From NCBI GenBank assembly GCA_964645245.1, contig CAZYBS010000001.1, positions 526 through 64,525 of the forward strand: a stretch of 64,000 nucleotides of DNA. The letters are read 5' to 3'. The DNA is from an uncultured Candidatus Saccharibacteria bacterium (lineage in GTDB: Bacteria > Patescibacteriota > Minisyncoccia > Phycocordibacterales > UBA9973). The notes below the pieces were generated by a model. The model saw only the letters and a list, made by a program, of their open reading frames with translations. It ran no database searches and was not told the origin of the DNA. The position numbers and the translations under genes were made by a program. Positions 6,976-63,580 of this stretch are shown here, piece after piece. Each line of letters begins with the position of its first letter. Within the stretch, counting starts at the first letter, position 1.

Positions 6976-6979
6976 TACT

Positions 6980-8596: not shown

Positions 8597-8648
8597 ACCT
8601 CACCCCTTCCCCCTCTCCTTAATAAGGGGAGGGGCTGGGGAGGGGTTA
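8597..8648. repeat. family-1 GC palindrome directly downstream of giant gene stop
   Basis: cctcaccccttccccctctccttaataaggggaggggctggggaggggt. Confidence 0.8.
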
Positions 8649-15666: not shown

Positions 15667-15726
15667 CACCTCTCCCCTTCGCCCCTCTCCATAAGAGAGC
15701 TTATGGAGAGGGGTTGGGGTGAGGCT
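15667..15726. repeat. family-1 GC palindrome downstream of 15744-16547 gene
   Basis: cctctccccttcgcccctctccataagagagcttatggagaggggttggggtgagg. Confidence 0.8.
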
Positions 15727-15743
15727 ACTAATTTACAAATTTT

Positions 15744-15970
15744 CTACTTCGCCATCGCATTCATCAGAGCTTTTGTTTTCTTGCCGATCAGGCCATCAGC
15801 TTTCAGGCCATTGTCCTTTTGCCATTTCTTGATGACGGCAATGGTCTTGGGACCAAGTTTACCATCCAGGACTAGACCCAGATTCAAGACTTTGTTCAAG
15901 AATCTTTGCAGTTCCTTGACTGGTTCACCTTTACTGCCGCTCTTCAGAGTAGTGGTGCCGAAGTTGTAGG
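15744..15970 (-). repeat. peptidoglycan-binding-domain 3' cassette, copy 2
   Basis: ~230 bp ~93% identical to 8651-8880. Confidence 0.8.
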
Positions 15971-16547
15971 GACCGGCCGAAACTGGAGAGACAACACCGC
16001 TGACACACAGTGCGCCAGTTGAGGTATTGTATTTATTGCCTCCGGAACAGCCGGGAGAAACCGTCGTCATGGTAACTTCTGGAGAAATGGTCAAGGCGAC
16101 GGGTGTCGTACTCGTCGCTACGGTTGCAGTCGGTGAAGCTGAAGAGGAACCTCCCCCGCCGCCTCCGCCGGAAACTAATCCTCCGCTACCGCCGAAAGTA
16201 CAAGCGGTAGAAGTAGGCGTAAAGATTACCGTCGTTGCTCCGGTAACCAGAACCGAGTTCTGAGAAAGGTTACAAGACTGAGCCAGACCCAAGTTATTCG
16301 TCAAGGTATCTCTAAGCGGAGACACCAAGGTTAAGGTACTGGAAGCCGGCACCGTCACGGTCAGCGTCGTCGCGCCGACTTCTATTGTCGTGGCCGCTGA
16401 ATTAGCTGTAATCGTGTAGTCGCGGCTATTAACCGTGACTGTCGTATCAACGCTGAAAGTCAAGTCAGCCGCTTGCGCAACCGAAACGACTCCAACACAG
16501 AGAGACAAGACAGCTATTAACAAACCGATTTTTAATTTTTTAATCAT
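15744..16547 (-). CDS. secreted protein with the same C-terminal peptidoglycan-binding domain
   Basis: signal peptide MIKKLKIGLLIAVLSLCVGVVSVAQA; last ~70 aa ~93% identical at DNA level to the end of the giant gene. Confidence 0.6.
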   Translation of the reverse strand: MIKKLKIGLLIAVLSLCVGVVSVAQAADLTFSVDTTVTVNSRDYTITANSAATTIEVGATTLTVTVPASSTLTLVSPLRDTLTNNLGLAQSCNLSQNSVLVTGATTVIFTPTSTACTFGGSGGLVSGGGGGGGSSSASPTATVATSTTPVALTISPEVTMTTVSPGCSGGNKYNTSTGALCVSGVVSPVSAGPYNFGTTTLKSGSKGEPVKELQRFLNKVLNLGLVLDGKLGPKTIAVIKKWQKDNGLKADGLIGKKTKALMNAMAK

Positions 16548-16641: not shown

Positions 16642-16679
16642 CCTGCCCGCAATGCTACGCATATAGCGTTGCAGGCGGG
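16642..16679. repeat. family-3 palindrome, intergenic, just downstream of the 16691 gene stop
   Basis: cctgcccgcaatgctacgcatatagcgttgcaggcggg. Confidence 0.75.
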
Positions 16680-16690
16680 AAACAAAATAA

Positions 16691-18886
16691 TTATTTGTTG
16701 GTATAAACACTCCAAGTATTTGCAGCTGTGTTCACGAAAGTTAATTCAATATCTGTACCTGAAGCAACTGTTGCAGTTCCAATAATTGTCATACCTGAAG
16801 CTCCAGCAGTAATGGTCAAGGTTTGAGCACCACCGAGGTTAGCAAACACTACTCTGAATGTATCCCCAACTGCGACACCTGGAATAGCAGCAGAAAGAAG
16901 AGTACCAGTAGGGAAAGTAACCGTACCTGCCCCCGTAGCACTTGTTTGAGTTAGAACACCACCTAGAGTCTGAGCTGCTGTTGGAGTAGAGTTTTGAACT
17001 GTACCAAGTGCAGTAGTCGTCGTACTAAACAATGGAACTCTTAATGTGCCTCGTCCAAGGGAAATAAAACCATTAGCACCAGCCGTACCACCATTAGCAC
17101 CACCACCAGCACCTGGAACTAAGGTTACATTTCCACCAGCACCACCAGTACCAGAAGCACCACCTGACAAACCACCAGCACCTGCTGTTAAGCCCAATGC
17201 GCCACCAGCACCAGATGTACCAGCGTTAGTTGAGTTTGCTCCACCAGTACCTGTCGTAATTGATACAGCACCACCAGCACCTGAGCCATTAGTTGCACCC
17301 GTAGCAACACCACCATTTCCAACGGTAACAGTCAATGCGCCACCAGCGCCACCAACAGTAGCTGCAGCTGCAGTAGAACCAACACCTGTTGTAAGAGTAA
17401 TCGCACCACCGGCCGTGCCACCTGTAGAAGCAGTACCACCTGCGCCAGCAGTTATAGCAACAGCTCCACCAGCAGCTAGAGTACCAGCAGCACCTGCTTG
17501 GACTGTAACAGTACCTGGGGTATTTCCTAAGTTAGCAGTTCCAGATTGAACTGTTACATCACCAGAAGCACCACCAGTCGCAACACCTGATCTAAGAGAA
17601 ACCGCACCGGAAGCGCCGGAAGTTGTAGTACCAGAAAGGAAAGCAACAGTTCCGGAAGCGCCGGAAGTTGAACCACCAGCACCAGAAGTAAGAGCAACCG
17701 CGCCACCTGCGCCAGTTACACCACCTGCACCAGCAACACCAGTAACGGCACCACCAGCAGCAGCGACAGAACCAGCACCAGCTGTCAATGTAACAGCACC
17801 ACCAGCCGCACCAGTTGTGGCTGAGCCAACACCTGCAGCACCAGCAGTAAGAGTAATAGCACCAGCGGCACCGGATGTACCGGCACCAGAAGGAGCACCA
17901 GAAGCACCAGCAGTAAGCGAGTATGAACCACCAGCACCGGATGTACCAGTAGTAGTAGTGCCACCAGCGCCGAGAGTAACAGTAGAAGCACCACCGGCGC
18001 CACCTGTACCAGCACCAGAAGCATTACCTCCAGCGCCAGCTGTAAGGGTAGATGCGCCACCGGCGCCACCTGTACCCGTGACAGTAACGCCACCAGCACC
18101 AAGAGTTACGGTAGAAGCACCACCGGCACCACCAGTGTTACCTAATGTAGCCGCACTACCTGCACCCGAAGTTAAAGAGTAAGCACCACCTGCACCTGCA
18201 GAAGCGCCGGCAGTTGTGCCTGCAGCACCAGCAACAAGTGTAATTGCACCACCTGCACCTTGTCCGCCAGTTCCGCCAGCGCCAGCTGTAACAGTAACTG
18301 CGCCACCGGCGCCAGTTCCGGCACCGTTAGCACCCGCGGTAATTGCAACCGTACCCGGAGTGTTAGCGGCAGTCGTTGTACCTGAAGAGAGAGTTACCGC
18401 ACCAGAGACACCGGCTGTGGCATTACCAGAACCTAAAGCAACAGCACCCGAAGCACCGGAAGTAGTCGTGCCTGTAGCGACAGTCAATGCGCCTGAAGCG
18501 CCAGAAGTTGCGCCTCCAGCACCAGTAGTAACAGAAATAGCACCACCGGCACCAGTTGCGCCACCGGCACCAGCCGTCACTGCGCTAGCACCACCAGCCG
18601 CACTACCTTGACCTGCGCCAGCAATTAGAGAAGATGCGCCACCGGCAGAGTTGCCAGCCGTACCTGCACCGGAAGTTAACAAAATAGCACCACCAACACC
18701 CGTAGTTGAACCTCCAGCACCAGCTGTCACAGTGATAGCATCACCGGCTGCTGAAGCAGAACCTTGCGCGCTAGTAACACTTGTTGCGGCAACAGTCAGA
18801 GTTGCGCTAGCCTGACCCGCGCCGACAAATGCGACCAGAGCCAGAGACATCAAAATTAAACCTAAACCTTTAAATAATTTTTTCAT
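16691..18886 (-). CDS. Gly/Ala/Thr-rich highly repetitive secreted protein (putative surface fibril/adhesin)
   Basis: start set at MKKLFKGLGLILMSLALVAFVGAGQASA signal peptide; >600 aa of GAGGxTxGAxGAVTxT degenerate repeats; distinct beta-rich C-terminal domain. Confidence 0.55.
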   Translation of the reverse strand: MKKLFKGLGLILMSLALVAFVGAGQASATLTVAATSVTSAQGSASAAGDAITVTAGAGGSTTGVGGAILLTSGAGTAGNSAGGASSLIAGAGQGSAAGGASAVTAGAGGATGAGGAISVTTGAGGATSGASGALTVATGTTTSGASGAVALGSGNATAGVSGAVTLSSGTTTAANTPGTVAITAGANGAGTGAGGAVTVTAGAGGTGGQGAGGAITLVAGAAGTTAGASAGAGGAYSLTSGAGSAATLGNTGGAGGASTVTLGAGGVTVTGTGGAGGASTLTAGAGGNASGAGTGGAGGASTVTLGAGGTTTTGTSGAGGSYSLTAGASGAPSGAGTSGAAGAITLTAGAAGVGSATTGAAGGAVTLTAGAGSVAAAGGAVTGVAGAGGVTGAGGAVALTSGAGGSTSGASGTVAFLSGTTTSGASGAVSLRSGVATGGASGDVTVQSGTANLGNTPGTVTVQAGAAGTLAAGGAVAITAGAGGTASTGGTAGGAITLTTGVGSTAAAATVGGAGGALTVTVGNGGVATGATNGSGAGGAVSITTGTGGANSTNAGTSGAGGALGLTAGAGGLSGGASGTGGAGGNVTLVPGAGGGANGGTAGANGFISLGRGTLRVPLFSTTTTALGTVQNSTPTAAQTLGGVLTQTSATGAGTVTFPTGTLLSAAIPGVAVGDTFRVVFANLGGAQTLTITAGASGMTIIGTATVASGTDIELTFVNTAANTWSVYTNK

Positions 18887-19085
18887 AATCTTTTTCAGCC
18901 CGAGGCTGATCCGCCTTGGGCGGAAATAATAATTAATAATAATGTCACTAATAATTTTCCTCAATCGCCTAAGAGTGCCCTTAAGGGAATGCACTGTAAG
19001 ACAATTCAAGATGACAAAAGCGTATTCGACTCGCCAATGTGTCCCTAATTATACAATAGGAACAAATATTATGACACAAGGGGGG

Positions 19086-19097
19086 TGTGGATAACCC
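19086..19097 (-). promoter_or_regulatory. GGGTTATCCACA upstream element, ~32 nt before ttgtataat (promoter of Gly-rich surface gene)
   Basis: gggttatccacaccccccttgtgtcataatatttgttcctattgtataat. Confidence 0.45.
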
Positions 19098-19195
19098 GAA
19101 CTAGGGGCTAGTTGCTAGGGACTAGGGGATAGTTTTTATGCCAAATTTGTTTTTACTTTCCTAGAACCTAGAACCTTGTCCCTAGAACCTAACCT
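19094..19195. repeat. CTAG-rich motif cluster (ctaggggctag, ctagggactagggg, cctagaacctagaacc, ccctagaacctaacc)
   Basis: shares ctagaacctag / ctaggggctag words with 23655-23750 and 19765-19785. Confidence 0.45.
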
Positions 19196-19547
19196 ACTTC
19201 TTCGCTGCTAAAGCTTCAGCGATTTTGCTATTGGGAAGTATCGGACCGTAAAATACGACATGTTTCCTATTTAGATATAGGTGTTTGGGCGCCCAAAGAG
19301 CTTCAGTCAGCGGATTAAGCTGGAAATTGCTCTTCTTAGGGTCGGTAGCGTCTGGTGCCGTAGCTAGAATATAGCCATTTTTCAATTCCATCATTGGAAA
19401 TGTAGATAGCTTGCCTATATATACTTCCCCGGTGGAAAGATATACGACAGAAATAGAATTACCTGTATCCCTATATTTGCTCCAAAGAGCAACTCCCACG
19501 ACAACCAAAACCACGATAACTATCAGCGCGATATTTTTTTTAGACAT
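19194..19547 (-). CDS. hypothetical membrane-anchored protein
   Basis: 117-aa ORF with N-terminal TM anchor IALIVIVVLVVVGVALW. Confidence 0.4.
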   Translation of the reverse strand: MSKKNIALIVIVVLVVVGVALWSKYRDTGNSISVVYLSTGEVYIGKLSTFPMMELKNGYILATAPDATDPKKSNFQLNPLTEALWAPKHLYLNRKHVVFYGPILPNSKIAEALAAKK

Positions 19548-19611
19548 AATAAATTCTTTTTTATGTTATTTGTAATAGAGATACTATAGAGGAATTTGAT
19601 ACAAAATACAA

Positions 19612-19682
19612 CCTCACCCTACCCTCTCCAAAGGAGAGGGTAAATCACCCCTCCCTTTTGGGGAGGGGTTGGGGAGAGGTGG
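19612..19682. repeat. family-1 GC palindromes (two adjacent hairpins)
   Basis: ccctctccaaaggagaggg and cccctcccttttggggagggg. Confidence 0.8.
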
Positions 19683-19688
19683 TAAATA

Positions 19689-19719
19689 CAAAAAACCACT
19701 CTGAAAGGAGTGGTTTTTT
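19689..19719 (-). terminator. rho-independent terminator hairpin, near-identical duplicate of the 15634 copy
   Basis: aaaaaaccactctgaaaggagtggtttttt. Confidence 0.6.
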
Positions 19720-19785
19720 GAAGTTTTAGAAGATCGACCCCGCCCAAGGCGGGCAGGCATCTAAAAGCTATTTCTAGAACCTAGG

Positions 19786-19842
19786 CCTCACCCCTCCGCC
19801 CCTCTCCATAACTTAGTTATGGAGAGGAGTTGGGGGAGAGGT
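19786..19842. repeat. family-1 GC palindrome directly downstream of 19842-23348 gene stop
   Basis: cctcacccctccgcccctctccataacttagttatggagaggagttgggggagagg. Confidence 0.8.
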
Positions 19843-22800
19843 TAGCTTGATACGCCAACCGTACCGGTAGGATAGTTGTAGAAGAAGCCAGGAGTTGTGG
19901 TCGTACGGTCAAGGTATCTGTTGGATACGGTCGTAGCCGCGCTTCCGGCGACATCTATACCATTGGTAGTAGCGGCATTTCCAGCCGTGTCAGTCCAGCT
20001 CAAGAGGTCCGCATTACCGGTGCTCAATGTAGCTTGACCGGCTTTGTTCGTACTGGTAACCGCGTCAAACTGCAAGAAAATCTTGAAGGTCTGACTTGTT
20101 CCAGCCGGAATCTGATAACCACCGGTAAAGGTAATGGTTGAAGTACCTCCAGCTGTCGTACTACCCATTGCCGTATTAGTCGTAGTCACCGGATTGCCGT
20201 CCTTGTCTTTAACACGAATACCGTCAGCCGCATAACCAGGGTTAGCATTAGGTAGTGTAGCCGAAGTTAGAATGGCATTAATTGGCAGAGCGTTAAGTGT
20301 GATATCACCCTTGAGATTAGCCGTCACAACCACATTACCAATTTGAACTGACCCAGTAGTAAGTACTTGAGTTGAGGTCGTCAGCGTCATGGTAGGAGCC
20401 GAACCAACCAATTTCATAGTCGGAGCAGCTACTGTAGCCGCGGTCTGAACAGTATCACAAGTTTGGATAGCCGCCGTACAAAGCGTACTGGTCGTATTAC
20501 CGCTGGTGTACTTGATGTACTCCAGAGCGACACGCGCAGTAGCGCCGGTAGAAATACCATTAGTGCCAACTTCGGCGTAGGAAACAAACACCTCCTGGCT
20601 AAGTCCGGAACCGCCGTTTGGAACAGTCAGAGCCAGACCGGTCAAGTAGGAAACACCAGCAACCGGCGCAGCTGACACATTGCCAACCTTAATCGCCGTA
20701 ACCGTTGAAGGAACTAATCTAACCGCTGAAGGAGTACCGGTAGAAGCTACAGCCACATAAACAGTCAGGTTTGGAGCGGAAATTGCGGTAACCGTACCCA
20801 AACCGTTGGTGGTCGCGGCCACTAGCTGAACGACATCACCCACCGCAAACTTAGCCGTATCGGCTGAAGTCGTCAGGGTCAGTGTCTGGGCAGTAGTTGT
20901 GTTTGCATCGGCATCGGTAGAAGCGGCCGAGAAGTCTTGGCTGTTGACAGTGAATTTCATTTCTGAAATTACTGCCGAGCCGCCAGTCGCTTGAATCTTG
21001 AACACTGCCTTGGTAGCATTAGCCGCACCGCCATTGGCCGCCGGAACGAATTGCTGAGAGGTAGATGGAGCGGTCAGCAAGGCAATGTTGTTAGAAACTG
21101 TACCGACAGCCAAAGTAACTGTTTGACCGGTTACCGCTGTCGCATTACCGTTCTGACTAATTGAAACATTGCTGCTTGAACCAATAGAAGTAACAACCAG
21201 CTTGGTCAAAACTGATGCGCTGCCAGCTGTAGCACCCGTATCAGCCAACACATCAATTACTTTGGTTGCTCCAGGTAGAAGCGTAAAGTCAACGGAGAAT
21301 GTGTTGGAAGCCGCCGGCTGAATTGGATTAGCGCCGGAGCCAGTAGTTTCGGAAGTTCTAAGATTGGAGAAGTTGGTCAAGGCCGGGGTGGTAGAAGTTG
21401 ACAGGGCTGTGCCCGCACCATTGAATAAGGTAACAGCCAAACTGGTTACCCGAACAGATTCAGAAGAACTCTGGTTTTGCAGAACGAATGAGCCAACCTT
21501 CACACCGGCGGTGTTCGGATTAGCATTTTGACTGGCATAACCGGTATTCCTGGAAACCGCCAGGACTCCGGTCTGAACAGTCAGGATTGTTCCGGTGACG
21601 GTAGAAGTCGGGAAATTCAAAGTGGCCTTTGAATTCTGACCCTGTCCATTGCTGGAACCGACATTAAGGTTAGCCGAGACCGAACCGGCAGTATAGTTGA
21701 TACTGGTAGAGTTCTGAAGGTCGGCGCGAATTTCAATATAACTGTCCGCACCGGCTGGCAGAATCATTTGTGAACCAAGCTGGAAGGTAAGCGCATCCGT
21801 GCCGTTGTAGGCAGCGCTGGAACCAACCTGTGAACCGTTAAAGTAGATAGTCACATTGTTCAAGTTGGTCGTTGAACCGGAGGCGGTAACACCGCTAGTC
21901 ATGATAGGTTTAACAATAAGATTGCTAACCTTCACATCCTCGCCATATCCATGCACTTTGAATTTACCAATAGCGACGTTGGTCGCGCCGCCAGTAATAT
22001 TCGTCAGCGCTTGGAAAGTAGGGTCAACATTGACCGAAGCCGAACCGGCATTAATTGTTATTTGACCGGCCGTATTGGCAGTAAAGGCAGTGGTAGAACT
22101 AACAGCCGCAGCCAAATTTACTCCAACTTGACCATCGTAGAGAACTAAGTCAGAGGCTTGCTGAACTGAAACTGTAACCGTGTAGCTTGCACCCTTGACA
22201 ATATCTGCGCGCACATCAACCGTGTGCGTACCAGTTGAAAGCTTTAGAGGGCTAGCGGAAAAGTCAAACATTGCGTAGTTGGAGCCGGTAATCGTGCCCA
22301 TCGTAGCGGCACTGCCTACATTGACACCATCAACATAAAGCTTGACATTGCCCAGCGCGTCAACCGGGGCTGAACCAACTGTGCGGAAGTTCGCACCCTT
22401 GAGCCAGACTTCACGTACATTTACTTGTACCGGAGCTGACCAGACTGTGTAGGCGGAGGTCCCGGCATTGACTGATGCGGCCGGAACAGCCACCGAAGCT
22501 TGCGTGGCCAGATAGACACTCGCTAAGTTACCGCTACCGTAAGTCATTGTATTACCGCTTACGTTAGCTGTCACAGCTGTTTGACCAGCGGCGGTAAAGC
22601 TAAGTAGAGTAATGCCCAGAGTGGAAGCATTAGTCACAACAGCCACATCAGCTTTGACCGAAATAGTTCTGGAACCACTGACCGCCAGACCAAGACTATT
22701 CATTGTTAGTTCACCAGTATTGTTGAATGAATAACCGTCGGTCAGACGAGTCGTCCCGTCATATAAGTAGAGATTGGACAAGGTGTTTTGGTCAGAGACA

Positions 22801-23348
22801 CCAGTGCGCTTGAGCATAACTGTATTGACAGTGCCTGCACCACTGAAGGTAAAGTGCGCCAGGTCAGCCGTAGATTGACCGCCGATGATGTATCTGGAAG
22901 CTGGATTGTCTGCCGCAACTGCGACGGTTACTGGACCAGTTTGTGCTACTGGAGTTGTTGCTGCACAAGGAGCGCCGGTATTACTATTGTACATAGCCCC
23001 GCCCTCACAACCTGCAGCTGGAGCAGAAGTCATAGCCGCACCGCCGGACCAAGCAGCGCGTGATTTAGGACCGAAGACTCCGTCAGCCGCCAAGCCTGCA
23101 TCGCTTTGCCAAGCCATGACAGCCGCTTTGGTTTTCGGACCAAATTTACCGTCGGCAGTGGCTCCGACCGCCGTCTGCAGACATTTAACTTGCTCGCCTT
23201 TTGAACCTACTCTCAAGGTGCTAGTGATTGTACAATCAGCCGCAAGAGCTGTAGTCGCGAACGCAAAGGCGAACAAGACGACACCTACGAGCAGAGCCGA
23301 CGCAACCATCGCTCCAAGAAGGAATTTTGATTTTAATATATTACTCAT
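19842..23348 (-). CDS. large cell-surface protein (1168 aa) with N-terminal peptidoglycan-binding-like domain and Ig-like beta repeats
   Basis: signal peptide, then GSKGEQVKCLQTAVGATADGKFGPKTKAAVMAWQSDAGLAADGVFGPKS (PG_binding_1-like), long Thr/Ala/Val/Gly-rich body. Confidence 0.65.
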   Translation of the reverse strand: MSNILKSKFLLGAMVASALLVGVVLFAFAFATTALAADCTITSTLRVGSKGEQVKCLQTAVGATADGKFGPKTKAAVMAWQSDAGLAADGVFGPKSRAAWSGGAAMTSAPAAGCEGGAMYNSNTGAPCAATTPVAQTGPVTVAVAADNPASRYIIGGQSTADLAHFTFSGAGTVNTVMLKRTGVSDQNTLSNLYLYDGTTRLTDGYSFNNTGELTMNSLGLAVSGSRTISVKADVAVVTNASTLGITLLSFTAAGQTAVTANVSGNTMTYGSGNLASVYLATQASVAVPAASVNAGTSAYTVWSAPVQVNVREVWLKGANFRTVGSAPVDALGNVKLYVDGVNVGSAATMGTITGSNYAMFDFSASPLKLSTGTHTVDVRADIVKGASYTVTVSVQQASDLVLYDGQVGVNLAAAVSSTTAFTANTAGQITINAGSASVNVDPTFQALTNITGGATNVAIGKFKVHGYGEDVKVSNLIVKPIMTSGVTASGSTTNLNNVTIYFNGSQVGSSAAYNGTDALTFQLGSQMILPAGADSYIEIRADLQNSTSINYTAGSVSANLNVGSSNGQGQNSKATLNFPTSTVTGTILTVQTGVLAVSRNTGYASQNANPNTAGVKVGSFVLQNQSSSESVRVTSLAVTLFNGAGTALSTSTTPALTNFSNLRTSETTGSGANPIQPAASNTFSVDFTLLPGATKVIDVLADTGATAGSASVLTKLVVTSIGSSSNVSISQNGNATAVTGQTVTLAVGTVSNNIALLTAPSTSQQFVPAANGGAANATKAVFKIQATGGSAVISEMKFTVNSQDFSAASTDADANTTTAQTLTLTTSADTAKFAVGDVVQLVAATTNGLGTVTAISAPNLTVYVAVASTGTPSAVRLVPSTVTAIKVGNVSAAPVAGVSYLTGLALTVPNGGSGLSQEVFVSYAEVGTNGISTGATARVALEYIKYTSGNTTSTLCTAAIQTCDTVQTAATVAAPTMKLVGSAPTMTLTTSTQVLTTGSVQIGNVVVTANLKGDITLNALPINAILTSATLPNANPGYAADGIRVKDKDGNPVTTTNTAMGSTTAGGTSTITFTGGYQIPAGTSQTFKIFLQFDAVTSTNKAGQATLSTGNADLLSWTDTAGNAATTNGIDVAGSAATTVSNRYLDRTTTTPGFFYNYPTGTVGVSS

Positions 23349-23614
23349 AAATTTTTTCTAATTTTTACGCCATTAATTAGTTTCGACTCGCCCCTCACTT
23401 GCACGCAAGTGAGGGACAAAACTAAAAGCGTATTTTTTCTATCGTTATTTTTTACCCGCTAATAATAATGACCTTTTATTCTCCTTCAAGATTTTTTCGA
23501 CGAAATCGTGAACGAAAACAAATTACGATTGGTGAATATAGATTGCACAAAGATGTGCAGTCAACAGACACCATGACATTATAATATACAGCTCCAGGAT
23601 AGAGCAATATACTA

Positions 23615-23626
23615 TGTGGATAACTC
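23615..23626 (-). promoter_or_regulatory. GAGTTATCCACA upstream element, ~30 nt before tattataat (promoter of 19842-23348 surface gene)
   Basis: gagttatccacatagtatattgctctatcctggagctgtatattataat. Confidence 0.45.
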
Positions 23627-23654
23627 CCACACCCCTATATTTGCACACTTTTAA

Positions 23655-23750
23655 CTGGAATGCAAGGGGGTAAATCAGGGGCTAGGTGCTAGGTTCTAGA
23701 TTATGCTGTTTTTCACTAGTCCCTAGCACCTAGAACCTAGCCCCTGATTT
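23655..23750. repeat. CTAG-rich long imperfect inverted repeat downstream of the 23737 gene
   Basis: atcaggggctaggtgctaggttctag ... ctagtccctagcacctagaacctagcccctgat. Confidence 0.5.
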
Positions 23751-24456
23751 GGTACCTACTCCAGCGTTTCTCTCCTGTCTTATTAAGGATACTGTCCTTG
23801 ACCATAGATACTAACTCTCTCTGTAATGTCTTTTCACTACAAGAAGAAATGAGTGACCCTGCCTCGCCGGCAGGCAGGCCTGAAGCTTTGGTTTTAATAT
23901 CCGTTATGGTAACACCACTAGGACTGGCTTTTATTACAGATATTATTAGATCTCGTCTTTGTTTTTTTACGGACAAAGCAAGAGTTCTATCGGACAAAGC
24001 TTTCATAAGAGTGCTCCCTTTTTGGACACCGATTCTAGTATGTCCTTTAGAATTTTCTCTCCCCCTGCTAAGGGGGAGTGCTCCGACCCGGGTCGGAGCG
24101 AGGGGGTCAGACCCCTCCTCATTCCTCCCCTTAGCAGGGGAGGAATTTTCTAAAAATTCTTCAAGCCATGTAGGTTTTATTTGCTTGGACTCACTTATGG
24201 ATTGATTGAGTTCTGTGAATTCTTTTCTGAGAATATTGCTATTCATTTCAGAAATGATATTAACGGCGGAAGCTATGTCCAAAAAGGACATGATCTCAGA
24301 TATTTTAGGTAAAGTATTTACCGGGGCAAAATGCATGTCCGATATAATATTAGTGCCTAATGTCCTTAACTTATTCCGAAGTGGCTCTTCTTTGTCCATA
24401 ATGTCTGTTACCATATAAAGCGCAGTAATAAGTTTATTGGTCTTGGTGTAAGACAT
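23737..24456 (-). CDS. hypothetical protein with C-terminal winged-helix-like segment
   Basis: start set at MSYTK (upstream ORF extension is a translated repeat half-copy); contains in-frame ~90-bp GC-palindrome insertion at 24056-24144. Confidence 0.4.
   Translation of the reverse strand: MSYTKTNKLITALYMVTDIMDKEEPLRNKLRTLGTNIISDMHFAPVNTLPKISEIMSFLDIASAVNIISEMNSNILRKEFTELNQSISESKQIKPTWLEEFLENSSPAKGRNEEGSDPLAPTRVGALPLSRGRENSKGHTRIGVQKGSTLMKALSDRTLALSVKKQRRDLIISVIKASPSGVTITDIKTKASGLPAGEAGSLISSCSEKTLQRELVSMVKDSILNKTGEKRWSRYQIRG
24056..24144. repeat. composite family-1 GC palindrome (nested hairpins) in-frame in 23737-24456 gene
   Basis: ctccccctgctaagggggag ... ctccgacccgggtcggag ... gagggggtcagacccctcctc ... 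cctccccttagcaggggagg. Confidence 0.75.
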
Positions 24457-24458
24457 CA

Positions 24459-24488
24459 ACCTCACCCCTTCGCCCCTCTCCTTAATAT
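24459..24488. repeat. family-1 half-copy (left arm only) at the 5' end of the same gene
   Basis: cctcaccccttcgcccctctccttaata. Confidence 0.6.
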
Positions 24489-24586
24489 TTTTTTCATCTC
24501 CAAGCATCTGTCCGTTATACTATAGGACAAGGAAAAACGCAAGGTATTTTTACTAAAAAACTTTTCTGTGTTAAAATATAAATATC

Positions 24587-26809
24587 ATGAAAAATAAAAA
24601 AGAAAATCCAGTAGGACTAAAAACTCAAACCAAACACGGGATAATGGCAGTCATTTTTTTTGTTTTGGCATTATTTTTTTTAATGTCCGCCTTTGAGATG
24701 ACGGGAGTCGCCGGTGAATTTATTTATGAAAAACTTAATTACCTTTTAGGTATCGGCTATGCACTTCTTCCTGCCCTTTTTGTCTTGCTTGGGTCTTCAT
24801 TTGTAAAATCGGAGACTCCGGATATCGGATGGACAAGTACAATAAGTGGAATAATGTTTCTCCTCTCGGGGCTCGGACTAATAGACATTGCCTCCGGTAA
24901 GCATTCGGGCGGATTGTTAGGAGAAATTTTATCAATACCTCTGGTCTCTCTTTTTGACGCATATGCGAGCATTATTTTCCTCGGCGCAATTTTAATAATT
25001 TCAATTCTGGTAATATTTGACGCAAAACTGGACATCGCGCCTTTTTTTGAAAAACTCTGGATTTTGATAACGAAGAAAAAAGCAGAGAAATACTCTTCCC
25101 CTGCTAAGGGGGAGATAGCCGAAGTAGAGGGGGTCGACCCCTCCCTAATCCTCCCCTTAGCAGGAGAGGAGGAATCAGAACCGATAACTAAAAAAATTAA
25201 AAAAGTATTGGGTATAAGTAAGGAAGACGAAGAAGAGATGCCAATTAAAAAAAGGAAAGCGGATCTTTCTACTTACGTTCCTCCCCCACTGTCTCTATTG
25301 GAAGAAGATCAAGGTAAGCCGAATACCGGCGACATAAAAGCTAATGCCAATATAATAAAACGCACGCTCCTAAACTTCGGCATTGAAGTGGAAATGGATG
25401 AAATAACAATCGGGCCGACCGTCACGCGTTATGCATTGAAACCGGCCGAGGGAATGAAACTCTCGCGCATTATCGGCCTCACCAACGACCTGGCGCTGGC
25501 GCTGGCGGCGCACCCGATTAGAATAGAGGCGCCGATTCCGGGAAAATCTTTGGTTGGCATTGAAATTCCAAATAGAACAAAGTCGCTAGTCGGTCTGGCC
25601 ACCCTGCTGGCTGATGATAAATTCCAAAATTCTTCAAAACCCCTGACTATAGCCCTAGGCCGCAACATCGGAGGCAAGTCAGTATTTGGCAACCTGGCCA
25701 GAATGCCGCATTGTCTGGTCGCCGGCGCAACCGGTTCCGGGAAATCAGTAGCTATTCACGCGATGATTACTTCCCTGCTTTATAGAAACGGGCCAGACGA
25801 CTTGAAATTTATAATGATAGACCCCAAGCGCGTAGAGCTCACCCTTTATAATAATATTCCGCACTTGCTCACTCCCGTCATCACTGATGCCAAAAAGACA
25901 ATCCTGGCTTTGAAGTGGGCAGCCAAAGAAATGGATCGCCGTTATGACATATTGGAAGCAGAATCCGTGCGAGACATAGAATCTTACCATAACAATATCT
26001 GGAAAGAAGGGGGTGGTGATCGTCTACCTTATATTATCATTATAATAGATGAGTTAGCAGACATAATGAGTTCTTATCCGAGAGAACTTGAATCCGCCAT
26101 CATCCGCCTGGCGCAACTGTCCAGAGCTGTGGGCATTCATTTAATCTTGTCTACCCAGCGTCCGGAAGTAAATATCATTACCGGCCTAATTAAAGCTAAT
26201 ATTCCGGCTCGAGTCGCCCTGAAAGTTTCTTCGCAAGTAGATTCACGCACCATACTGGATGCCGGCGGCGCAGAAAAACTTTTGGGCGCCGGAGATATGC
26301 TTTATTCTTCGGGCGAAGCTCAGCCAGAACGCTTGCAGAGCGCGTTTATTTCCGAAGCCGAAGTTAAAAAAGTCGTAAAGTATCTGGCCGATGTATATAA
26401 AGATGAAATATCCGAAGAGATAGCATTTTCGGCAGGAAATATGGCAGTTGATAAAAGTATTTTTTCCGCCCAAGGCGCCGCGCCTGCCGGATTTGGCGGG
26501 CAGGGACCAGCCTTGGGCTGGGAAAGCTTAGATGAAGGAGGTGATGACGATGAACTGTACGAAGAAGCGAGAGCTTGTGTCATAGAGGCCGGTAAAGCGT
26601 CAACTTCTTATCTGCAAAGAAAATTAAAATTAGGATACGCACGCGCGGCGCGCCTAATGGATAAATTGGAAGAACGTGGAGTAATCGGCCCCGGCGATGG
26701 CGCAAAACCCAGGGAGGTATTGTCCCGACGTCCAGAGGAGTCGGGATCCCGACCGCAAACGTCGGGAGAGAAAATCACGCATGATGATATGGGGGGTAAT
26801 ACAATATGA
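24587..26809 (+). CDS. ftsK: DNA translocase FtsK
   Basis: N-terminal TM helices, linker, motor domain with Walker A GATGSGKSV, C-terminal gamma domain (SYLQRKLKLGYARAARLMDKLEERGVIGP). Confidence 0.9.
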   Translation: MKNKKENPVGLKTQTKHGIMAVIFFVLALFFLMSAFEMTGVAGEFIYEKLNYLLGIGYALLPALFVLLGSSFVKSETPDIGWTSTISGIMFLLSGLGLIDIASGKHSGGLLGEILSIPLVSLFDAYASIIFLGAILIISILVIFDAKLDIAPFFEKLWILITKKKAEKYSSPAKGEIAEVEGVDPSLILPLAGEEESEPITKKIKKVLGISKEDEEEMPIKKRKADLSTYVPPPLSLLEEDQGKPNTGDIKANANIIKRTLLNFGIEVEMDEITIGPTVTRYALKPAEGMKLSRIIGLTNDLALALAAHPIRIEAPIPGKSLVGIEIPNRTKSLVGLATLLADDKFQNSSKPLTIALGRNIGGKSVFGNLARMPHCLVAGATGSGKSVAIHAMITSLLYRNGPDDLKFIMIDPKRVELTLYNNIPHLLTPVITDAKKTILALKWAAKEMDRRYDILEAESVRDIESYHNNIWKEGGGDRLPYIIIIIDELADIMSSYPRELESAIIRLAQLSRAVGIHLILSTQRPEVNIITGLIKANIPARVALKVSSQVDSRTILDAGGAEKLLGAGDMLYSSGEAQPERLQSAFISEAEVKKVVKYLADVYKDEISEEIAFSAGNMAVDKSIFSAQGAAPAGFGGQGPALGWESLDEGGDDDELYEEARACVIEAGKASTSYLQRKLKLGYARAARLMDKLEERGVIGPGDGAKPREVLSRRPEESGSRPQTSGEKITHDDMGGNTI
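25094..25172. repeat. composite family-1 GC palindrome in-frame in ftsK linker
   Basis: cttcccctgctaagggggag ... gagggggtcgacccctccc ... cctccccttagcaggagagg; close relative of the 24056-24144 copy. Confidence 0.75.
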
Positions 26810-27219
26810 ATCACAACGCAAAAAGAATATCACAAATAGCTGGCCTGTCTATTTTTTTTCTTCTGATTATTATTTACGCCTTTTTCCGCTCTCATGATTT
26901 AATTTTCGGAGTGAAAATAAAAAATGTAAATATAGTAGACGGGGCACCCGCCCGAACGACTGTTCAGTCGGGCGGGAAAGTTGCAAACAGTGTTCTCCAA
27001 GTGACAGGAAATGCGAGAAATGCGACAAACTTGACTTTAAACGGCCGGGAAATTTCAATAGACCAAGAAGGTAATTTCGACGAGACAATAGTTCTCCTGA
27101 TAGGATATAATATAATAAATATAACAGCCAAAGATAAATTTGGATATATTGATGAAAAAAATTATCAAATTATAAATAACGAGCGAAGTGAGTATATTTT
27201 ATTTGACCCTGTTAAATGA
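26806..27219 (+). CDS. hypothetical membrane-anchored protein
   Basis: 137 aa, start overlaps ftsK stop (ATGA), N-terminal TM; contains in-frame 30-bp family-2 palindrome. Confidence 0.4.
   Translation: MNHNAKRISQIAGLSIFFLLIIIYAFFRSHDLIFGVKIKNVNIVDGAPARTTVQSGGKVANSVLQVTGNARNATNLTLNGREISIDQEGNFDETIVLLIGYNIINITAKDKFGYIDEKNYQIINNERSEYILFDPVK
26947..26976. repeat. family-2 30-bp palindrome in-frame in ORF 26806-27219
   Basis: cccgcccgaacgactgttcagtcgggcggg (identical 30-mer). Confidence 0.85.
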
Positions 27220-27306
27220 TTTTTGAAGACAAAAATCAAAATCTAAAAGATTTTATTTAACAGGGTGGTGATTTTATATAGTCGCTACGCTCATTAAAAA
27301 TCAACC

Positions 27307-28380
27307 ATGTTAAAGAAAAAAGAAAAAAAAGAAGACAAGACTGTGGGAATAGCTGTGCTGGAAGATACTTTGAAGTCAATCCAAAATAAATTTGGCGAAG
27401 GAGCCATAATGAAGTTCGGTGATTCACCGAAGGTGGACGTCAATGTGGTGCCAACTGGCTCTATCGGCCTGGATATGGCGCTCGGAGTCGGCGGGATACC
27501 ACGCGGCAGAATTATTGAAATATTCGGGCCGGAATCATCCGGAAAGACAACGCTCGCCTTGCATATCGCGGCGGAAGCGCAAAAGCTCGGTGGGATCTGC
27601 GCCTACATAGATGCCGAACACGCAATGGACCCGGAATATACCAAAAAACTTGGAGTTAACATAAATAATCTGCTCATTTCCCAACCGGATAACGGCGAAC
27701 AAGCGCTGGAAATCGTAGAGAGCTTAGTGCGAACGGGAAAAATTGATGTCATCGTTATCGACTCGGTGGCAGCGCTCACTCCCAAAGATGAGATTGAAGG
27801 TGATATGGGCGCATATCATGTCGGCAAGCAGGCCCGCCTGATGTCCCAAGCGCTGCGCAAGCTTACGGCAATAGTGGCAAGGTCTAAGACCGTTGTTATT
27901 TTTATAAATCAAATCCGCATGCAAATCGGAGTGATGTTCGGCAATCCAGAAACTACTCCGGGAGGCAAAGCGCTGAAGTTCTACACTTCGGTCCGGCTGG
28001 ATATTCGAAAAATCGCTCAAATAAAAAAAGGGGAAGAAGTTGTGGGTTCGCGCACCCGTGTCAAGGTAGTGAAAAATAAGGTCTCAGCTCCATTCAAGCA
28101 GACGGAATTTGATATTATTTACAACGAAGGCATTTCCAAAGAAGGCGAGATTATGGCATTGGGAGAGAAATTCAAAATCATAGAAAAAACCGGGAATTCG
28201 TATTTCTATGTACCCCTACCCGGCCTCCCCCTTAATAAGGGGGAGGAGAAAGGAGGGGGTAAAGAGAAAATAAAGCTCGGCGTAGGCTATGACTCTACCC
28301 GCACGTTCCTGAAAGAAAACAAAAAAATCTCCGACCAAATCCTGAAAGAAATTAAAAAGAAATTTACGGAGGAAGCGTAA
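27307..28380 (+). CDS. recA: recombinase RecA
   Basis: [36 protein letters not shown] and remaining conserved RecA core; C-terminal region has an in-frame palindromic insertion. Confidence 0.95.
28212..28260. repeat. family-1 GC palindrome in-frame in recA C-terminal region
   Basis: cctcccccttaataagggggagg; adds [17 protein letters not shown] relative to canonical RecA. Confidence 0.75.
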
Positions 28381-28514
28381 AAACTCGTTGAAACATAACT
28401 TTTCGGAGGGGTTTTGAGCGCGACGGCGCGAAAACTTCAGGATTTTTTAAGCTTCAAAAAATCCGTACCGAAGAAAAGTTGTGTTGAGAAAGAGTTTCTG
28501 ATAATATAGCCCCT

Positions 28515-29132
28515 ATGTCCCAGCTTCAATACAACGAAATTCGAGAGAAAAAAATAATAATTTACAACGGCGAGCCATGCGAAGTGGTAGAGAGCCACGT
28601 CGCGCGGACGCAACAGAGGAAACCGCAAAATCAGGTAAAACTCAAAAGCTTGATTTCCGGCAGGACCATCGCCGCCACTTTTCATGTCTCTGAATCGGCT
28701 GATGAAGCGGATATTATAAAGCGTGATATTACTTTTTTGTATCACAACAAACCTGCCCGCAATGCTTCGCATAGCGATGCGGGCGGGGGTGAATATTGGT
28801 TCTGCGACCCGCAAGACAAAAGTGACAGATTCAAACTTGATGCCATACTTATCGGCGAAGGAGCTAAATTCTTAAAACAAAACGGAAACGTTACAGCCCT
28901 AGTTTGGGAAAATGAAGAAGAAAATGAAAAAATTATAAAGGTAACCCTGCCGATTAAAATGGAATTTAAAGTAAAAGAGGCTCCACCGGCTGTCCGCGGA
29001 GACACATCTAAATCAGGCATGAAAGTTATCACTCTTGAAAACGGTGCAACCCTCAACGCCCCGATGTTCATAAACGGAGGAGATGTCATCCGCGTTAATA
29101 CGGAGACCGGAGAATATGTGGAGCGAGTTTAA
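28515..29132 (+). CDS. efp: elongation factor P
   Basis: 205 aa, three-domain EF-P layout with conserved KPxxxxVKLK region; loop insertion PARNASHSDAGG from a family-3 palindrome. Confidence 0.9.
   Translation: MSQLQYNEIREKKIIIYNGEPCEVVESHVARTQQRKPQNQVKLKSLISGRTIAATFHVSESADEADIIKRDITFLYHNKPARNASHSDAGGGEYWFCDPQDKSDRFKLDAILIGEGAKFLKQNGNVTALVWENEEENEKIIKVTLPIKMEFKVKEAPPAVRGDTSKSGMKVITLENGATLNAPMFINGGDVIRVNTETGEYVERV
28752..28787. repeat. family-3 palindrome in-frame in efp
   Basis: cctgcccgcaatgcttcgcatagcgatgcgggcggg. Confidence 0.75.
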
Positions 29133-30792: not shown

Positions 30793-31650
30793 CTAAATTG
30801 TAAATACTCGCTGGGCATTTGCAATCAAAGCTTGCGCAACTTCGTCTTCCGGCAGATTTTTAATCTCGGCAGTTTTTTTGACGACTTCTTTTACATAAGA
30901 GGGTTCATTACGTTTGCCTCGGTGTGGTACAGGAGTGACATACGGAGAATCTGTCTCAGACATAATCATATCAAGCGGCGTATTTCTGATAACTTCATCG
31001 TAGTCCCGGGTAAATGTAATGACCCCGGTAAAAGAAAGAGTAAAACCAAAATCCAAAAAACTTTTTGCTTCCTCCCAAGTCCCGGCAAAAAAATGCACAT
31101 TGCCTTTAACTTGAGCATAAGTCTTTAGAATTTCTAGAGCATCACTATAAGCCCGCCCGAACGACTGTTCAGTCGGGCGGGCATTGCGAATATGAAGCAT
31201 CAAGGGTTTATTAAATTCATTGGCCAGTTCTATTTGCTGTATAAAAGCTTCTTTTTGTTTTAATATTGACTCTTCGGTGCAACGATAATAATCCAACCCG
31301 CACTCGCCTATTCCGACTATTTTTTCATTTGCTTTTTTGTCTTTTAAAAGTTCTCGGTAAGATTCTTTATCAAAAACTTCTCCGCGCGAGGTAAATTCTT
31401 TTCCGCCAACACCTAACTCCTTTTCATCGTGATACGACACTCCAGTATGTATCGGGTGCAGTCCGATAATCGCATACACGCCTTCTTTATACTGATTGGC
31501 CATTTTCACCGCTTTTCTTGAAGTATCCATTTGCGTACCGACATTTATCACCCAGGTATTATTTTCCAAGGCGCGCTTAATCACCTCATCTCTATCTTCA
31601 TCAAAGGCCTTAAAATTAACATGGCTATGTATATCTATGTATTTGGGCAT
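30793..31650 (-). CDS. tatD: TatD-family metal-dependent hydrolase/DNase
   Basis: N-terminal IDIHSHVNF, TIM-barrel metal ligands; in-frame family-2 palindrome insertion (NARPTEQSFGRAYS). Confidence 0.85.
   Translation of the reverse strand: MPKYIDIHSHVNFKAFDEDRDEVIKRALENNTWVINVGTQMDTSRKAVKMANQYKEGVYAIIGLHPIHTGVSYHDEKELGVGGKEFTSRGEVFDKESYRELLKDKKANEKIVGIGECGLDYYRCTEESILKQKEAFIQQIELANEFNKPLMLHIRNARPTEQSFGRAYSDALEILKTYAQVKGNVHFFAGTWEEAKSFLDFGFTLSFTGVITFTRDYDEVIRNTPLDMIMSETDSPYVTPVPHRGKRNEPSYVKEVVKKTAEIKNLPEDEVAQALIANAQRVFTI
31152..31181. repeat. family-2 30-bp palindrome in-frame in tatD
   Basis: cccgcccgaacgactgttcagtcgggcggg (identical 30-mer). Confidence 0.85.
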
Positions 31651-34833: not shown

Positions 34834-34883
34834 ACACCCCTCCCCAACCCTCCCCTTATTAAGGGGAGGGCGAAGGGTGAGGT
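34834..34883. repeat. family-1 GC palindrome, intergenic, opposite orientation
   Basis: cacccctccccaaccctccccttattaaggggagggcgaagggtgagg. Confidence 0.8.
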
Positions 34884-63501: not shown

Positions 63502-63580
63502 CCCCCTAAATCCCCCTTATCAGGGGGACACCTCTCCCCAACCCCTCTCCTTATTAAGGAGAGGGGCGAAGGGTGAGGCC
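63502..63580. repeat. family-1 GC palindromes (two hairpins), intergenic
   Basis: cccccttatcaggggga and cctctccccaacccctctccttattaaggagaggggcgaagggtgagg. Confidence 0.8.

Follow-up and report, generated by a model that had tools for sequence, protein, structure and literature searches.

A 36-bp GC-rich palindrome within efp and recJ of a Patescibacterium, read as a REP/RPE-like non-autonomous repeat with a candidate GIY-YIG partner

The Rickettsia palindromic elements (RPEs) are repeats of about 100-150 bp in ten families, found only in Rickettsia, that lie between genes as well as in frame within unrelated housekeeping genes, where they add a conserved peptide compatible with the protein fold (PMC10969869). 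The palindrome that we describe here shares this dual placement and likewise adds a conserved peptide compatible with the fold, but it is 36 bp (12 residues) long, occurs in PVC phyla as well as in Patescibacteria, and has one protein-coding gene, a GIY-YIG gene, that recurs next to it. We know of no such neighbour for the RPEs.

The REP/REPIN-RAYT systems are also GC-rich imperfect palindromes, of 20-40 bp, present in many copies that are sometimes adjacent or clustered, and they are linked to a single small enzyme gene with the repeat on either side of it. However, REPs lie outside genes, are tagged at one end with the tetranucleotide GTAG or CGTC (PMC3733652), have a Y1 HUH transposase as partner and are mostly inherited vertically, whereas here many copies are intragenic (two of the three in the window, by which we mean the whole 64-kb stretch of DNA analysed), neither end has such a tag, the sequence is common to several phyla, and the gene next to the repeat encodes a GIY-YIG (Slx1-like) nuclease and adjoins a tRNA gene.

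Short GC-rich hairpins have also invaded AT-rich, compact mitochondrial genomes, coding regions included, as GC clusters and as the RHEs of sponges, in genomes that also contain GIY-YIG homing endonuclease genes (RHE: PMC2800124). These hairpins differ in being organellar and in having other sequences. The yeast var1 GC cluster is a mitochondrial example, and to our knowledge no specific linkage of such hairpins to a nuclease gene beside tRNA genes has been described. Phage T4 SegB is a small, selfish, free-standing GIY-YIG gene among tRNA genes (PMC2330249), but its protein includes a DNA-binding domain and no dispersed palindrome is associated with it, whereas the 78-aa proteins described below are a bare Slx1-like catalytic domain.

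The window, from a bacterium with a tiny genome, contains three copies of the palindrome, which we call family 3. The first-pass annotation had placed two of them, at 16642-16679 and 28752-28787, and both are found at these coordinates; the copy at 53677-53712 was absent from it. The copies and the genes around them are as follows.

16642-16679, plus strand: 38-nt variant of the palindrome with an extra TA in the loop, intergenic; CCTGCCCGCAATGCTACGCATATAGCGTTGCAGGCGGG
16691-19009, minus strand: Gly/Ala/Thr-rich ORF of 772 aa with no Pfam family, its stop preceding the intergenic copy
28515-29132, plus strand: efp, elongation factor P, 205 aa; Pfam EFP_N and Elong-fact-P_C, PDB EF-P matches at E = 6e-24
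28752-28787, plus strand: 36-nt copy in frame within efp; CCTGCCCGCAATGCTTCGCATAGCGATGCGGGCGGG, reading PARNASHSDAGG, EF-P residues 79-90
52507-54231, minus strand: recJ, single-stranded-DNA exonuclease, 574 aa counted from the ATG at 54231 (the mechanical ORF extends to 54354); Pfam DHH, DHHA1 and RecJ_OB, PDB RecJ at E = 7e-78
53677-53712, minus strand: 36-nt copy of the C12/G20 haplotype in frame within recJ, reading PARNASRSDSGG in the same frame as the efp copy

A 14-mer of the palindrome, with up to two mismatches allowed, matches three times in the window where 0.38 matches are expected, and three were reached in none of 100 shuffles. All three copies fold as hairpins on the sense strand, at -25 to -29 kcal/mol (z = -4.6 to -5.5). 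The intergenic copy (-25 kcal/mol, z = -4.6) lies 11 nt downstream of the stop codon (16691-16693) of the minus-strand Gly-rich ORF, and it had been suggested that it could act as a terminator hairpin. An intrinsic (Rho-independent) terminator at 16642-16679 was considered and rejected: the hairpin is there, but a T-run follows it on neither strand and a consensus terminator scan makes no call. A REP-like effect of this copy on mRNA 3' ends may exist.

A broader form of the same idea is that the palindrome is a functional regulatory hairpin that selection keeps in place and that does not move, terminating transcription or stabilising the mRNA 3' end after the Gly-rich gene and pausing translation in efp and recJ. 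The stable fold, the position just past a stop codon, the frequent placement of PVC copies after stop codons, and the preservation of the fold by compensatory changes all agree with this. We nonetheless consider it decidedly unlikely, given the missing T-run, the occurrence of the same sequence in dozens of unrelated genes, at positions without relation to one another, and its absence from most of their orthologues, the mixed orientation of copies beside GIY-YIG genes, and the presence of nested and tandem copies.

The efp site can be compared closely with its empty counterparts. The window EF-P is 100% identical to that of Parcubacteria group bacterium Gr01-1014_24, and alignment with E. coli EF-P (PDB 6ENJ) opens a 13-residue gap exactly at the insert, between ...LTYLYN and DGEFWHF; the E. 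coli string LYKDGDE-YHF given in the first-pass annotation is wrong. Among the 120 closest EF-P proteins 18 have a PAR...GG insert at one codon boundary, and the other 102 have no PAR-type insert, one of them (P0092) having an unrelated 7-residue insert instead. For 14 of the 18 carriers the nearest relative is an empty protein, in a tree built from 192 columns only and from a best-120 match list biased towards insert carriers. At the DNA level, among 80 related loci, filled sites are longer than empty ones by exactly 36 nt, which stand between AAYAAR and GGNGAR, and no target sequence of 2 nt or more is duplicated. Elsewhere among these loci the site is occupied by a 24-nt, a 30-nt (family B) and a different 36-nt palindrome, of which the 24-nt and 30-nt forms preserve the reading frame. 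In a structural model of the window EF-P the insert is predicted to be a low-confidence coil (pLDDT about 52) between strands 67-77 and 93-98, at a beta-hairpin turn of domain II.

The recJ site behaves similarly. The insert PARNASRSDSGG directly precedes the conserved LCGAGV motif and is extra relative to the solved RecJ 8Y30; one protein in the comparison (P0241) is 100% identical to the window RecJ, 111 of 120 orthologues have an empty site, and the closest RecJ relatives have family-B-type inserts there. As judged from these alignments, carriers of the EF-P and RecJ inserts are interspersed with empty relatives, and exactly the same codon boundary is used by other short palindromes. The patchy presence at one site could partly reflect recombination among lineages that co-exist, or repeated precise loss. 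A MITE, with terminal inverted repeats and a target-site duplication, was also considered and rejected, as the whole element is one hairpin and the efp sites show no duplication of 2 nt or more.

Family 3 is one of several palindrome families in this genome, the others being represented in the window by the following.

2873-2906: variant of family B
26947-26976, strand unassigned: family B palindrome of 30 nt, CCCGCCCGAACGACTGTTCAGTCGGGCGGG, with terminal arms common to family 3
31152-31181: further copy of family B
52865-52891, within recJ: family-A palindrome, reading SPLTRGR
55834-55863: further copy of family B

In other lineages family B is found at both of the family 3 insertion sites, in efp (L147, P0052/P0068) and in recJ (P0242/P0243). 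The first-pass annotation had missed these several families, as well as the cross-phylum spread and the GIY-YIG/tRNA cassette link described below.

A strict pattern scan recovers the family 3 palindrome at no fewer than 120 loci. The taxa among the matches listed include many Patescibacteria classes together with Verrucomicrobia, Kiritimatiellia and Lentisphaerae, and the flanking GC content of the matches listed ranges from 0.32 to 0.66. Beyond efp and recJ, the in-gene hosts in other genomes include IleRS-like, MurD-like, GrpE-like and further ORFs. All 28 variants begin with CCYGCC... and end with ...GGCGGG, and their flanks are variable. Four haplotypes dominate among the matches listed, with differences that compensate one another and leave a bulged hairpin intact: 97.3% of cells pair in the bulged structure, a value reached by none of 500 shuffles, with compensatory pairs at 12-30 (UA 16/CG 7) and 16-26 (UA 14/AU 7/GC 2), whereas the plain palindrome register gives 90.2% pairing and no compensatory pairs. 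One palindrome lies within another at L007, copies are arranged head to tail at L089, and no Rfam 15 covariance model overlaps the palindrome at E <= 1. Within this genome the element is dispersed, and with little change it extends across Patescibacteria and Verrucomicrobia/Kiritimatiellia/Lentisphaerae. It is present at some orthologous sites and absent from others, its nested and tandem copies are hallmarks of a mobile element, and its hairpin is kept by compensatory changes. The first-pass annotation had called for a search for further copies, and had named their absence, together with EF-P relatives carrying the same segment, as grounds for giving up its reading; what is found is a third copy in the window, the many loci elsewhere, and EF-P orthologues that mostly lack the segment.

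All of these data come from metagenome-assembled genomes, and faulty assembly or sequencing, or contaminating DNA common to several bins, could in principle produce such a pattern. However, the element is recovered by many independent projects and platforms, its flanks match the GC content of their own genomes, reading frames are preserved, and lineage-specific variants have compensatory changes; we assign this explanation a negligible probability.

The intragenic copies show a strong preference in how they are read. With coding context defined by stop-to-stop ORFs of at least 100 aa, a measure that is unreliable for the high-GC PVC loci, 46 of the 63 36-nt copies at low-GC loci fall within ORFs, and 40 of these 46 are read in frame +0 (P = 3e-22 with one in five open frames as the expectation), which is the most hydrophilic Cys-free reading of the palindrome. 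By contrast, all ten 37-38 nt copies in other genomes lie outside long ORFs. The bias towards one frame and the exclusion of the 37-38 nt variants point to translation and selection rather than splicing, and the palindrome in efp and recJ is evidently translated as 12 extra residues. The suggestion that the same element stands both within coding sequence and between genes holds well on this reading, with efp and recJ on one side and 16642-16679 on the other.

The alternative is that the insert is lost either before translation, as a mini-intron, or during it, by a bypass of the kind known from yeast mitochondrial byp elements, so that the proteins lack the 12 residues. GC-rich palindromes in AT-rich mitochondrial genes can be bypassed, and the hairpin here is strong and compact. 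Removal would, however, make length and frame irrelevant, yet the intragenic copies are 36 nt, stop-free and mostly in one hydrophilic frame, the 37-38 nt variants are confined to non-coding DNA, and the shortened 24-nt and 30-nt derivatives at the efp site keep the frame. Removal is therefore very improbable.

Returning to translated insertions, we infer that in gene-dense, AT-rich Patescibacteria survival of a copy within a gene would need a length that is a multiple of three, a stop-free hydrophilic frame (P-A-R-N-A-S/T-H/R-S-D/V-A-G-G), and a permissive surface-loop site. Under these three conditions the efp and recJ copies would be translated 12-residue loop extensions without a required function, and the 38-nt intergenic copy would be a frame-breaking variant able to persist only outside genes.

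Of the 2954 ORFs at the palindrome loci, those of the GIY-YIG family recur most often as neighbours. A GIY-YIG gene lies 0-70 nt from the palindrome at L015, L021, L031, L033, L034, L096, L103 (twice) and L112, in mixed palindrome orientation, and the over-extended N-termini of GIY-YIG homologues read through the palindrome. When 78-aa Slx1-like GIY-YIG genes were sampled regardless of the palindrome, it was present just upstream in 8 of 8 (chance about 1e-18). These genes lie immediately upstream of a tRNA gene, and in seven of the eight cassettes a duplicated tRNA 5' fragment is split by the palindrome; no tRNA fragment is evident around the palindrome in the eighth, L222. The palindrome is a constant part of these GIY-YIG/tRNA cassettes, usually interrupting the duplicated tRNA 5' fragment. 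Against the link, only about 8% of sampled palindrome copies adjoin a GIY-YIG gene, and the palindrome is missing beside two members of the subfamily (L066, L090). Neither a GIY-YIG gene nor a tRNA gene is found within the 64-kb window, and the partner of the window copies, if any, is elsewhere in the genome or lost.

The 78-aa protein matches Pfam PF01541 (GIY-YIG, E = 3e-15 to 8e-18) and falls in the stand-alone size class of about 80-100 aa (Slx1-like/UPF0213 branch). Its best PDB relative is 1ZG2 (E = 1.5e-5), a bacterial Slx1-family member (PMC1564403).

The size of the palindrome, its GC-rich imperfect symmetry and the clustered intergenic PVC copies are REP/BIME-like, and REP-RAYT systems are an established precedent (PMC3116915, PMC3337134) for a classical REP/REPIN or an IS200/IS605-type hairpin moved by a Y1 (RAYT/TnpA) transposase, in which case the GIY-YIG adjacency would be incidental, for example through palindromes piling up in junk DNA beside selfish cassettes. 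We consider this unlikely. The REP tag is missing, no Y1-like family recurs in the ORFs of about 0.9 Mb surrounding 126 copies whereas GIY-YIG does, and a four-helix-bundle gene that is also common and multicopy in the same loci does not adjoin the palindrome. [quoted passage not shown]

We therefore favour, as the likely explanation overall, a short (36 bp) GC-rich imperfect palindrome that behaves as a REP/RPE-like non-autonomous mobile element, with the GIY-YIG gene as its candidate partner. Against such a role, GIY-YIG enzymes act on DNA by hydrolysis, and we know of none that transposes anything. Most probably the putative structure-specific nuclease, or its cassette, would be the source or trans-acting partner that spreads the palindrome, in the manner of RAYT and REP, and targeting of universally conserved tRNA genes by the cassette would explain movement between phyla. 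A bolder and more tentative proposal, which we think possible but somewhat doubtful, is a selfish system of two parts, the palindrome and the 78-aa Slx1-like GIY-YIG gene, that has not been described before. Its nuclease cassette would home into universally conserved tRNA genes and so pass between phyla, the palindrome would be carried at the split of the displaced tRNA fragment, and putative structure-specific cuts would seed solitary palindromes genome-wide, including in the loops of essential proteins. If true, this would parallel the RAYT-REP partnership with a GIY-YIG enzyme in place of RAYT, and it would keep Patescibacteria proteomes steadily supplied with loop insertions of 8-13 residues.

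Short palindromic repeats are usually regarded as intergenic curiosities, but here one 36-bp sequence is common, almost unchanged, to Patescibacteria and Verrucomicrobia and lies inside essential proteins (EF-P, RecJ, and aminoacyl-tRNA synthetase-like and cell-wall enzyme-like ORFs). It offers a concrete mechanism for the many small lineage-specific insertions in candidate-phyla-radiation proteins, and calls for caution in their alignment, phylogeny and structure prediction. The palindrome is a marker of recent inter-phylum DNA exchange, and its insertions provide a natural map of the loop sites that are permissive. Were the GIY-YIG link causal, it would be a new kind of enzyme-repeat partnership and would suggest a testable activity for the widespread, uncharacterised stand-alone bacterial Slx1-like nucleases.

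The palindrome occurs three times in the window:

16642-16679, 38 nt, intergenic, 11 nt beyond the stop codon that ends the Gly-rich ORF 16691-19009 on the minus strand
28752-28787, 36 nt, inside efp (28515-29132), encoding PARNASHSDAGG
53677-53712, minus strand, inside recJ, sharing frame and orientation with the efp copy, encoding PARNASRSDSGG

The two copies reported by the first-pass annotation, at the intergenic site and in efp, are both present, and searching the window with the first 14 bases of the palindrome located the third, giving 3 matches against 0.38 expected; none of 100 shuffles gave three. Each window copy forms a strong hairpin (sense strand -25 to -29 kcal/mol, z -4.6 to -5.5), and a strict pattern (GCCCGCAAYGCNNCGC, 1-5 nt, GCGNTNCNGGCGGG) scanned against species-representative genomes finds at least 120 loci with further copies. 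The palindrome is a real repeat family, referred to here as family 3. Matches at 100% assign the window to Parcubacteria group bacterium Gr01-1014_24.

The intergenic copy had been proposed to act as a terminator hairpin, but a canonical terminator is not supported, as a T-run is absent 3' of the element on both strands and a terminator scan is negative. A REP-like influence of this copy on mRNA stability is possible. Its additional TA would disrupt a reading frame. The neighboring ORF encodes a repetitive 772-aa Gly/Ala/Thr-rich protein whose N-terminus is signal-like and which matches no Pfam family; beside it lies a gene (15744-16547) for a 267-aa protein containing a peptidoglycan-binding domain.

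The whole window contains 31 GC-rich palindromes whose stems are 10 bp or longer, and two other families recur:

CCCCTCC...TTA...GGAGGGG, second family: 162-183, 3162-3183, 5824-5860, 8610-8634, 15682-15713, 28224-28246, 34848-34870, 52865-52891, 63542-63566
CCCGCCCGAACGACTGTTCAGTCGGGCGGG, 30-nt family: 26947-26976, 31152-31181, 55834-55863, 2873-2906

Several copies of the second family lie within long ORFs, for example in the recA C-terminal tail (LPLNKGE) and in recJ (SPLTRGR). The 30-nt family has terminal arms in common with family 3, encodes PARTTVQSGG or PARLNSRSGG where it lies in ORFs, and occupies the efp and recJ insertion sites of other lineages.

Comparison with relatives shows that the copies are insertions. 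The extra loop segment noted earlier relative to E. coli EF-P stands, as alignment with PDB 6ENJ leaves a 13-residue gap that coincides with the insert and is flanked by LTYLYN and DGEFWHF, although the E. coli sequence then quoted was slightly off. The majority of the closest 120 EF-P proteins are 192-193 aa long and lack the segment, and 18 contain a PAR...GG insert at the identical codon boundary. In a tree of 192 shared columns the carriers are scattered, with an empty nearest neighbor for 14 of the 18; because the tree is short and the list of 120 is biased towards carriers, we take this scatter to indicate that gain, loss or exchange has recurred, and not as a count of events. At the DNA level, among 80 related metagenomic loci, empty efp sites read AAYAAR|GGNGAR, and filled sites have exactly 36 additional nucleotides at this junction with no target duplication. 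The same boundary is alternatively filled by a 24-nt palindrome (CCTGCCCGCCAATTGGCAGGCGGG), a 30-nt palindrome (CCCGCCCGAACGACGGTTCAGTCGAGCGGG) or a different 36-nt palindrome, and the His and Arg versions, both major family 3 haplotypes, are found there. The recJ insert is likewise additional relative to the solved RecJ 8Y30, and the site is empty in 111 of 120 orthologues; the 30-nt type (PARTTVQSGG) occupies it in the nearest relatives, and family 3 in the window genome.

Both EF-P and RecJ have more indel hot spots, which in relatives hold small palindromes of other kinds. A second one in EF-P follows VWEN(D/E)EE (window ~28905-28925, residues ~131-137), where four relatives (loci L130, L143, L174 and L186) carry a small palindrome such as CCCACCGACGCTAAAGCTTTGGTGGGC, translated as PTDAKALVG. 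Separately, EF-P residues 29-40 (window 28599-28634), corresponding to the modified-Lys34 loop of E. coli, here read ARTQQRKPQNQ with Gln aligned with K34, and this loop is invariant in the 61 aligned orthologues, which suggests that post-translational modification is different or absent.

The intragenic copies carry the filter expected of translated sequence. We counted 36-nt copies in low-GC loci as intragenic if a stop-to-stop ORF of 100 aa or more contains them; this holds for 46, and 17 lie outside any long ORF. Forty of the 46 are in frame +0, the reading P-A-R-N-A-S/T-H/R-S-D/V-A-G-G (P = 3e-22 against one in five), and none of the ten copies of 37-38 nt lies within a long ORF. V1, the commonest haplotype, is open in five of six frames, and V2 has a stop in one more frame. 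Frame +0 gives the most hydrophilic of the Cys-free peptides, the other frames being hydrophobic or Cys/Arg-rich, and the residues flanking inserts are chiefly K, E, D, G and N. In an AlphaFold model of EF-P (mean pLDDT 83), residues 79-90 form a coil in domain II between strands 67-77 and 93-98, and the ten residues 81-90 have a mean pLDDT of 52. Such length and frame constraints would be absent if the segment were spliced out or bypassed, and we infer from this sequence evidence that it is probably translated and merely tolerated. The earlier idea of an element tolerated at once as structure and as protein is supported. The efp and recJ copies are likely to be passengers that sit in permissive loops and are either neutral or slightly deleterious. 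A further 37-nt copy, at locus L071 (~2046-2079), lies at the overlap of 626-codon and 473-codon frames; either the element has frameshifted a gene there or the sequence contains an error.

Family 3 is spread widely across phyla and is highly uniform. With lineages assigned by record title, the matches listed include many classes of Patescibacteria (Nomura-, Moran-, Davies-, Roizman-, Levy-, Giovannoni-, Jorgensen-, Staskawicz-, Magasanik- and Gribaldobacteria, Saccharibacteria and Kazan), Verrucomicrobia (including Udaeobacter, Chthoniobacterales and Prosthecobacter), Kiritimatiellia and Lentisphaerae, as well as some low-GC bins that carry Gammaproteobacteria or Bdellovibrionales labels by title alone. 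Flanking GC ranges from 0.32 to 0.66, indicating distinct genomic backgrounds. Copies in PVC genomes resemble classical REP clusters: they are situated after stop codons, locus L007 has one copy nested within a second, and two abut head-to-tail at L089. Across 129 copies, the flanking bases have no more than a weak preference for purine|G and tend not to be T at -1, which fits the Lys/Glu/Gly codons of loops better than a recognition site, and a target-site motif was rejected. A phage vector was also rejected, with just five matches among 2.9 million viral contigs, every one in a high-GC contig. These predicted viral contigs (L121-L125, GC 0.51-0.66) include one, L123, in which the palindrome lies within a 786-codon frame and is translated as PARNASRSDAGG.

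The hairpin is conserved. Four haplotypes account for 77 of the 114 36-nt copies among the matches listed, and variants show paired changes at positions left free by the search pattern. These fit a bulged hairpin made up of an outer stem of 6 bp, a bulge of 5 nt (CGCAA), then 3 bp, one T.T mismatch and 4 bp closed by a triloop, in which 97.3% of cells pair, with compensatory pairs at 12-30 (UA/CG) and 16-26 (UA/AU/GC); no shuffle reached the observed values. A plain symmetric palindrome is less supported, with 90.2% pairing and zero compensatory pairs. No Rfam family matches the palindrome.

When ORFs of at least 90 residues from loci around the palindrome were clustered (n=2954), a small GIY-YIG protein (Pfam PF01541) was the most recurrent family. 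At eight loci (L015, L021, L031, L033, L034, L096, L103 and L112) its gene lies 0-70 nt from the palindrome and adjoins tRNA genes. The order in L103 is GGGCGGTTA, palindrome, GCTCAGTTG, eight bases, the 78-codon GIY-YIG gene and an intact tRNA-Val starting GGGCGGTTAGCTCAGTTGG, such that the palindrome splits a duplicated tRNA 5' fragment at position 9/10. L103 also has two tandem units at 6860-7530, a perfect duplication of tRNA fragment plus palindrome followed by the GIY-YIG gene, upstream of tRNA-Val, and the TAG stop of the GIY-YIG gene overlaps the first G of the tRNA. The Verrucomicrobia loci L015 and L021 have the mirror order: intact tRNA-Val, GIY-YIG gene, then a tRNA 3' fragment that the palindrome interrupts. 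ARAGORN and Rfam detect the intact tRNA-Val only, arguing against a further tRNA or tmRNA, and what lies beyond the palindrome is a duplicated 3' fragment of a tRNA.

A palindrome-independent search with the GIY-YIG protein gave 559 matches, mostly of 78 aa, and over-extended N-termini among these homologues run directly across the palindrome (for example PARNATHSVAGG, LRIALQAG and MRSIAGR). Eight homologues were picked solely by the length of their contig, and all eight are preceded, in either orientation, by the palindrome or a near variant of it and followed by a tRNA-Val, Ile, Thr or Gln; from the palindrome density in the window, the chance of eight in eight is ~1e-18. Seven of them have a tRNA 5' fragment interrupted by the palindrome; in the eighth, L222, no tRNA fragment is evident around it. 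As controls, the palindrome is absent from a second GIY-YIG subfamily and from two genes of the same subfamily that do not adjoin tRNAs. The palindrome is tightly linked physically to these GIY-YIG/tRNA cassettes. A four-helix-bundle gene (23S rRNA IVS-type) recurs in the same loci, yet is not adjacent to the palindrome, and was rejected as a partner. The closest solved relative of the GIY-YIG protein is 1ZG2, a bacterial protein placed by PMC1564403 in the Slx1 branch of structure-specific nucleases. The 64-kb window contains no GIY-YIG gene and no tRNA gene.

In two relatives (L183 ~150-470 and L196 ~2660-2980) recA and efp are separated by a GIY-YIG gene belonging to a different subfamily and bordered by 17-18-nt inverted repeats CCCCGCACATAAATT.../...AAATTTATGTGCGGGG. 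In L210 (1360-1500), upstream of a GIY-YIG gene, two different palindromes occupy two positions of one duplicated tRNA-Thr 5' fragment.

We classify the palindrome as a REP/RPE-like palindromic repeat. Two known systems come closest to it in how it works. It shares with Rickettsia palindromic elements the property of being an in-frame passenger (PMC10969869), but differs in size and host range. It resembles REP/REPIN-RAYT systems in pairing a short palindrome with one enzyme gene, but lacks the extragenic location and GTAG/CGTC tag of REPs, and no Y1 transposase was seen among the ORFs around the copies. Mitochondrial genomes offer functional analogues in their GC clusters and hairpin elements. 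A literature search of incomplete coverage, which took in few subscription journals, found no description of the palindrome DNA or peptide, no link of GIY-YIG proteins to REP-like repeats (REP/RAYT), and no prior description of palindromes in Parcubacteria coding sequences.

The element is probably mobile and non-autonomous, with the GIY-YIG cassette as its putative source or helper, and targeting of tRNA genes could explain its transfer between phyla. With a hydrolytic nuclease, templated insertion of the 36-bp hairpin may proceed through nuclease-induced breaks repaired with other copies as template, or through gene conversion between elements via their common CCYGCCCG/CGGGCRGG arms; such conversion would also account for the exchange of interiors seen at efp and recJ. 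Family 3 and its cassette may represent a nuclease-repeat partnership of a new kind, a credible and testable proposal that we put forward tentatively.
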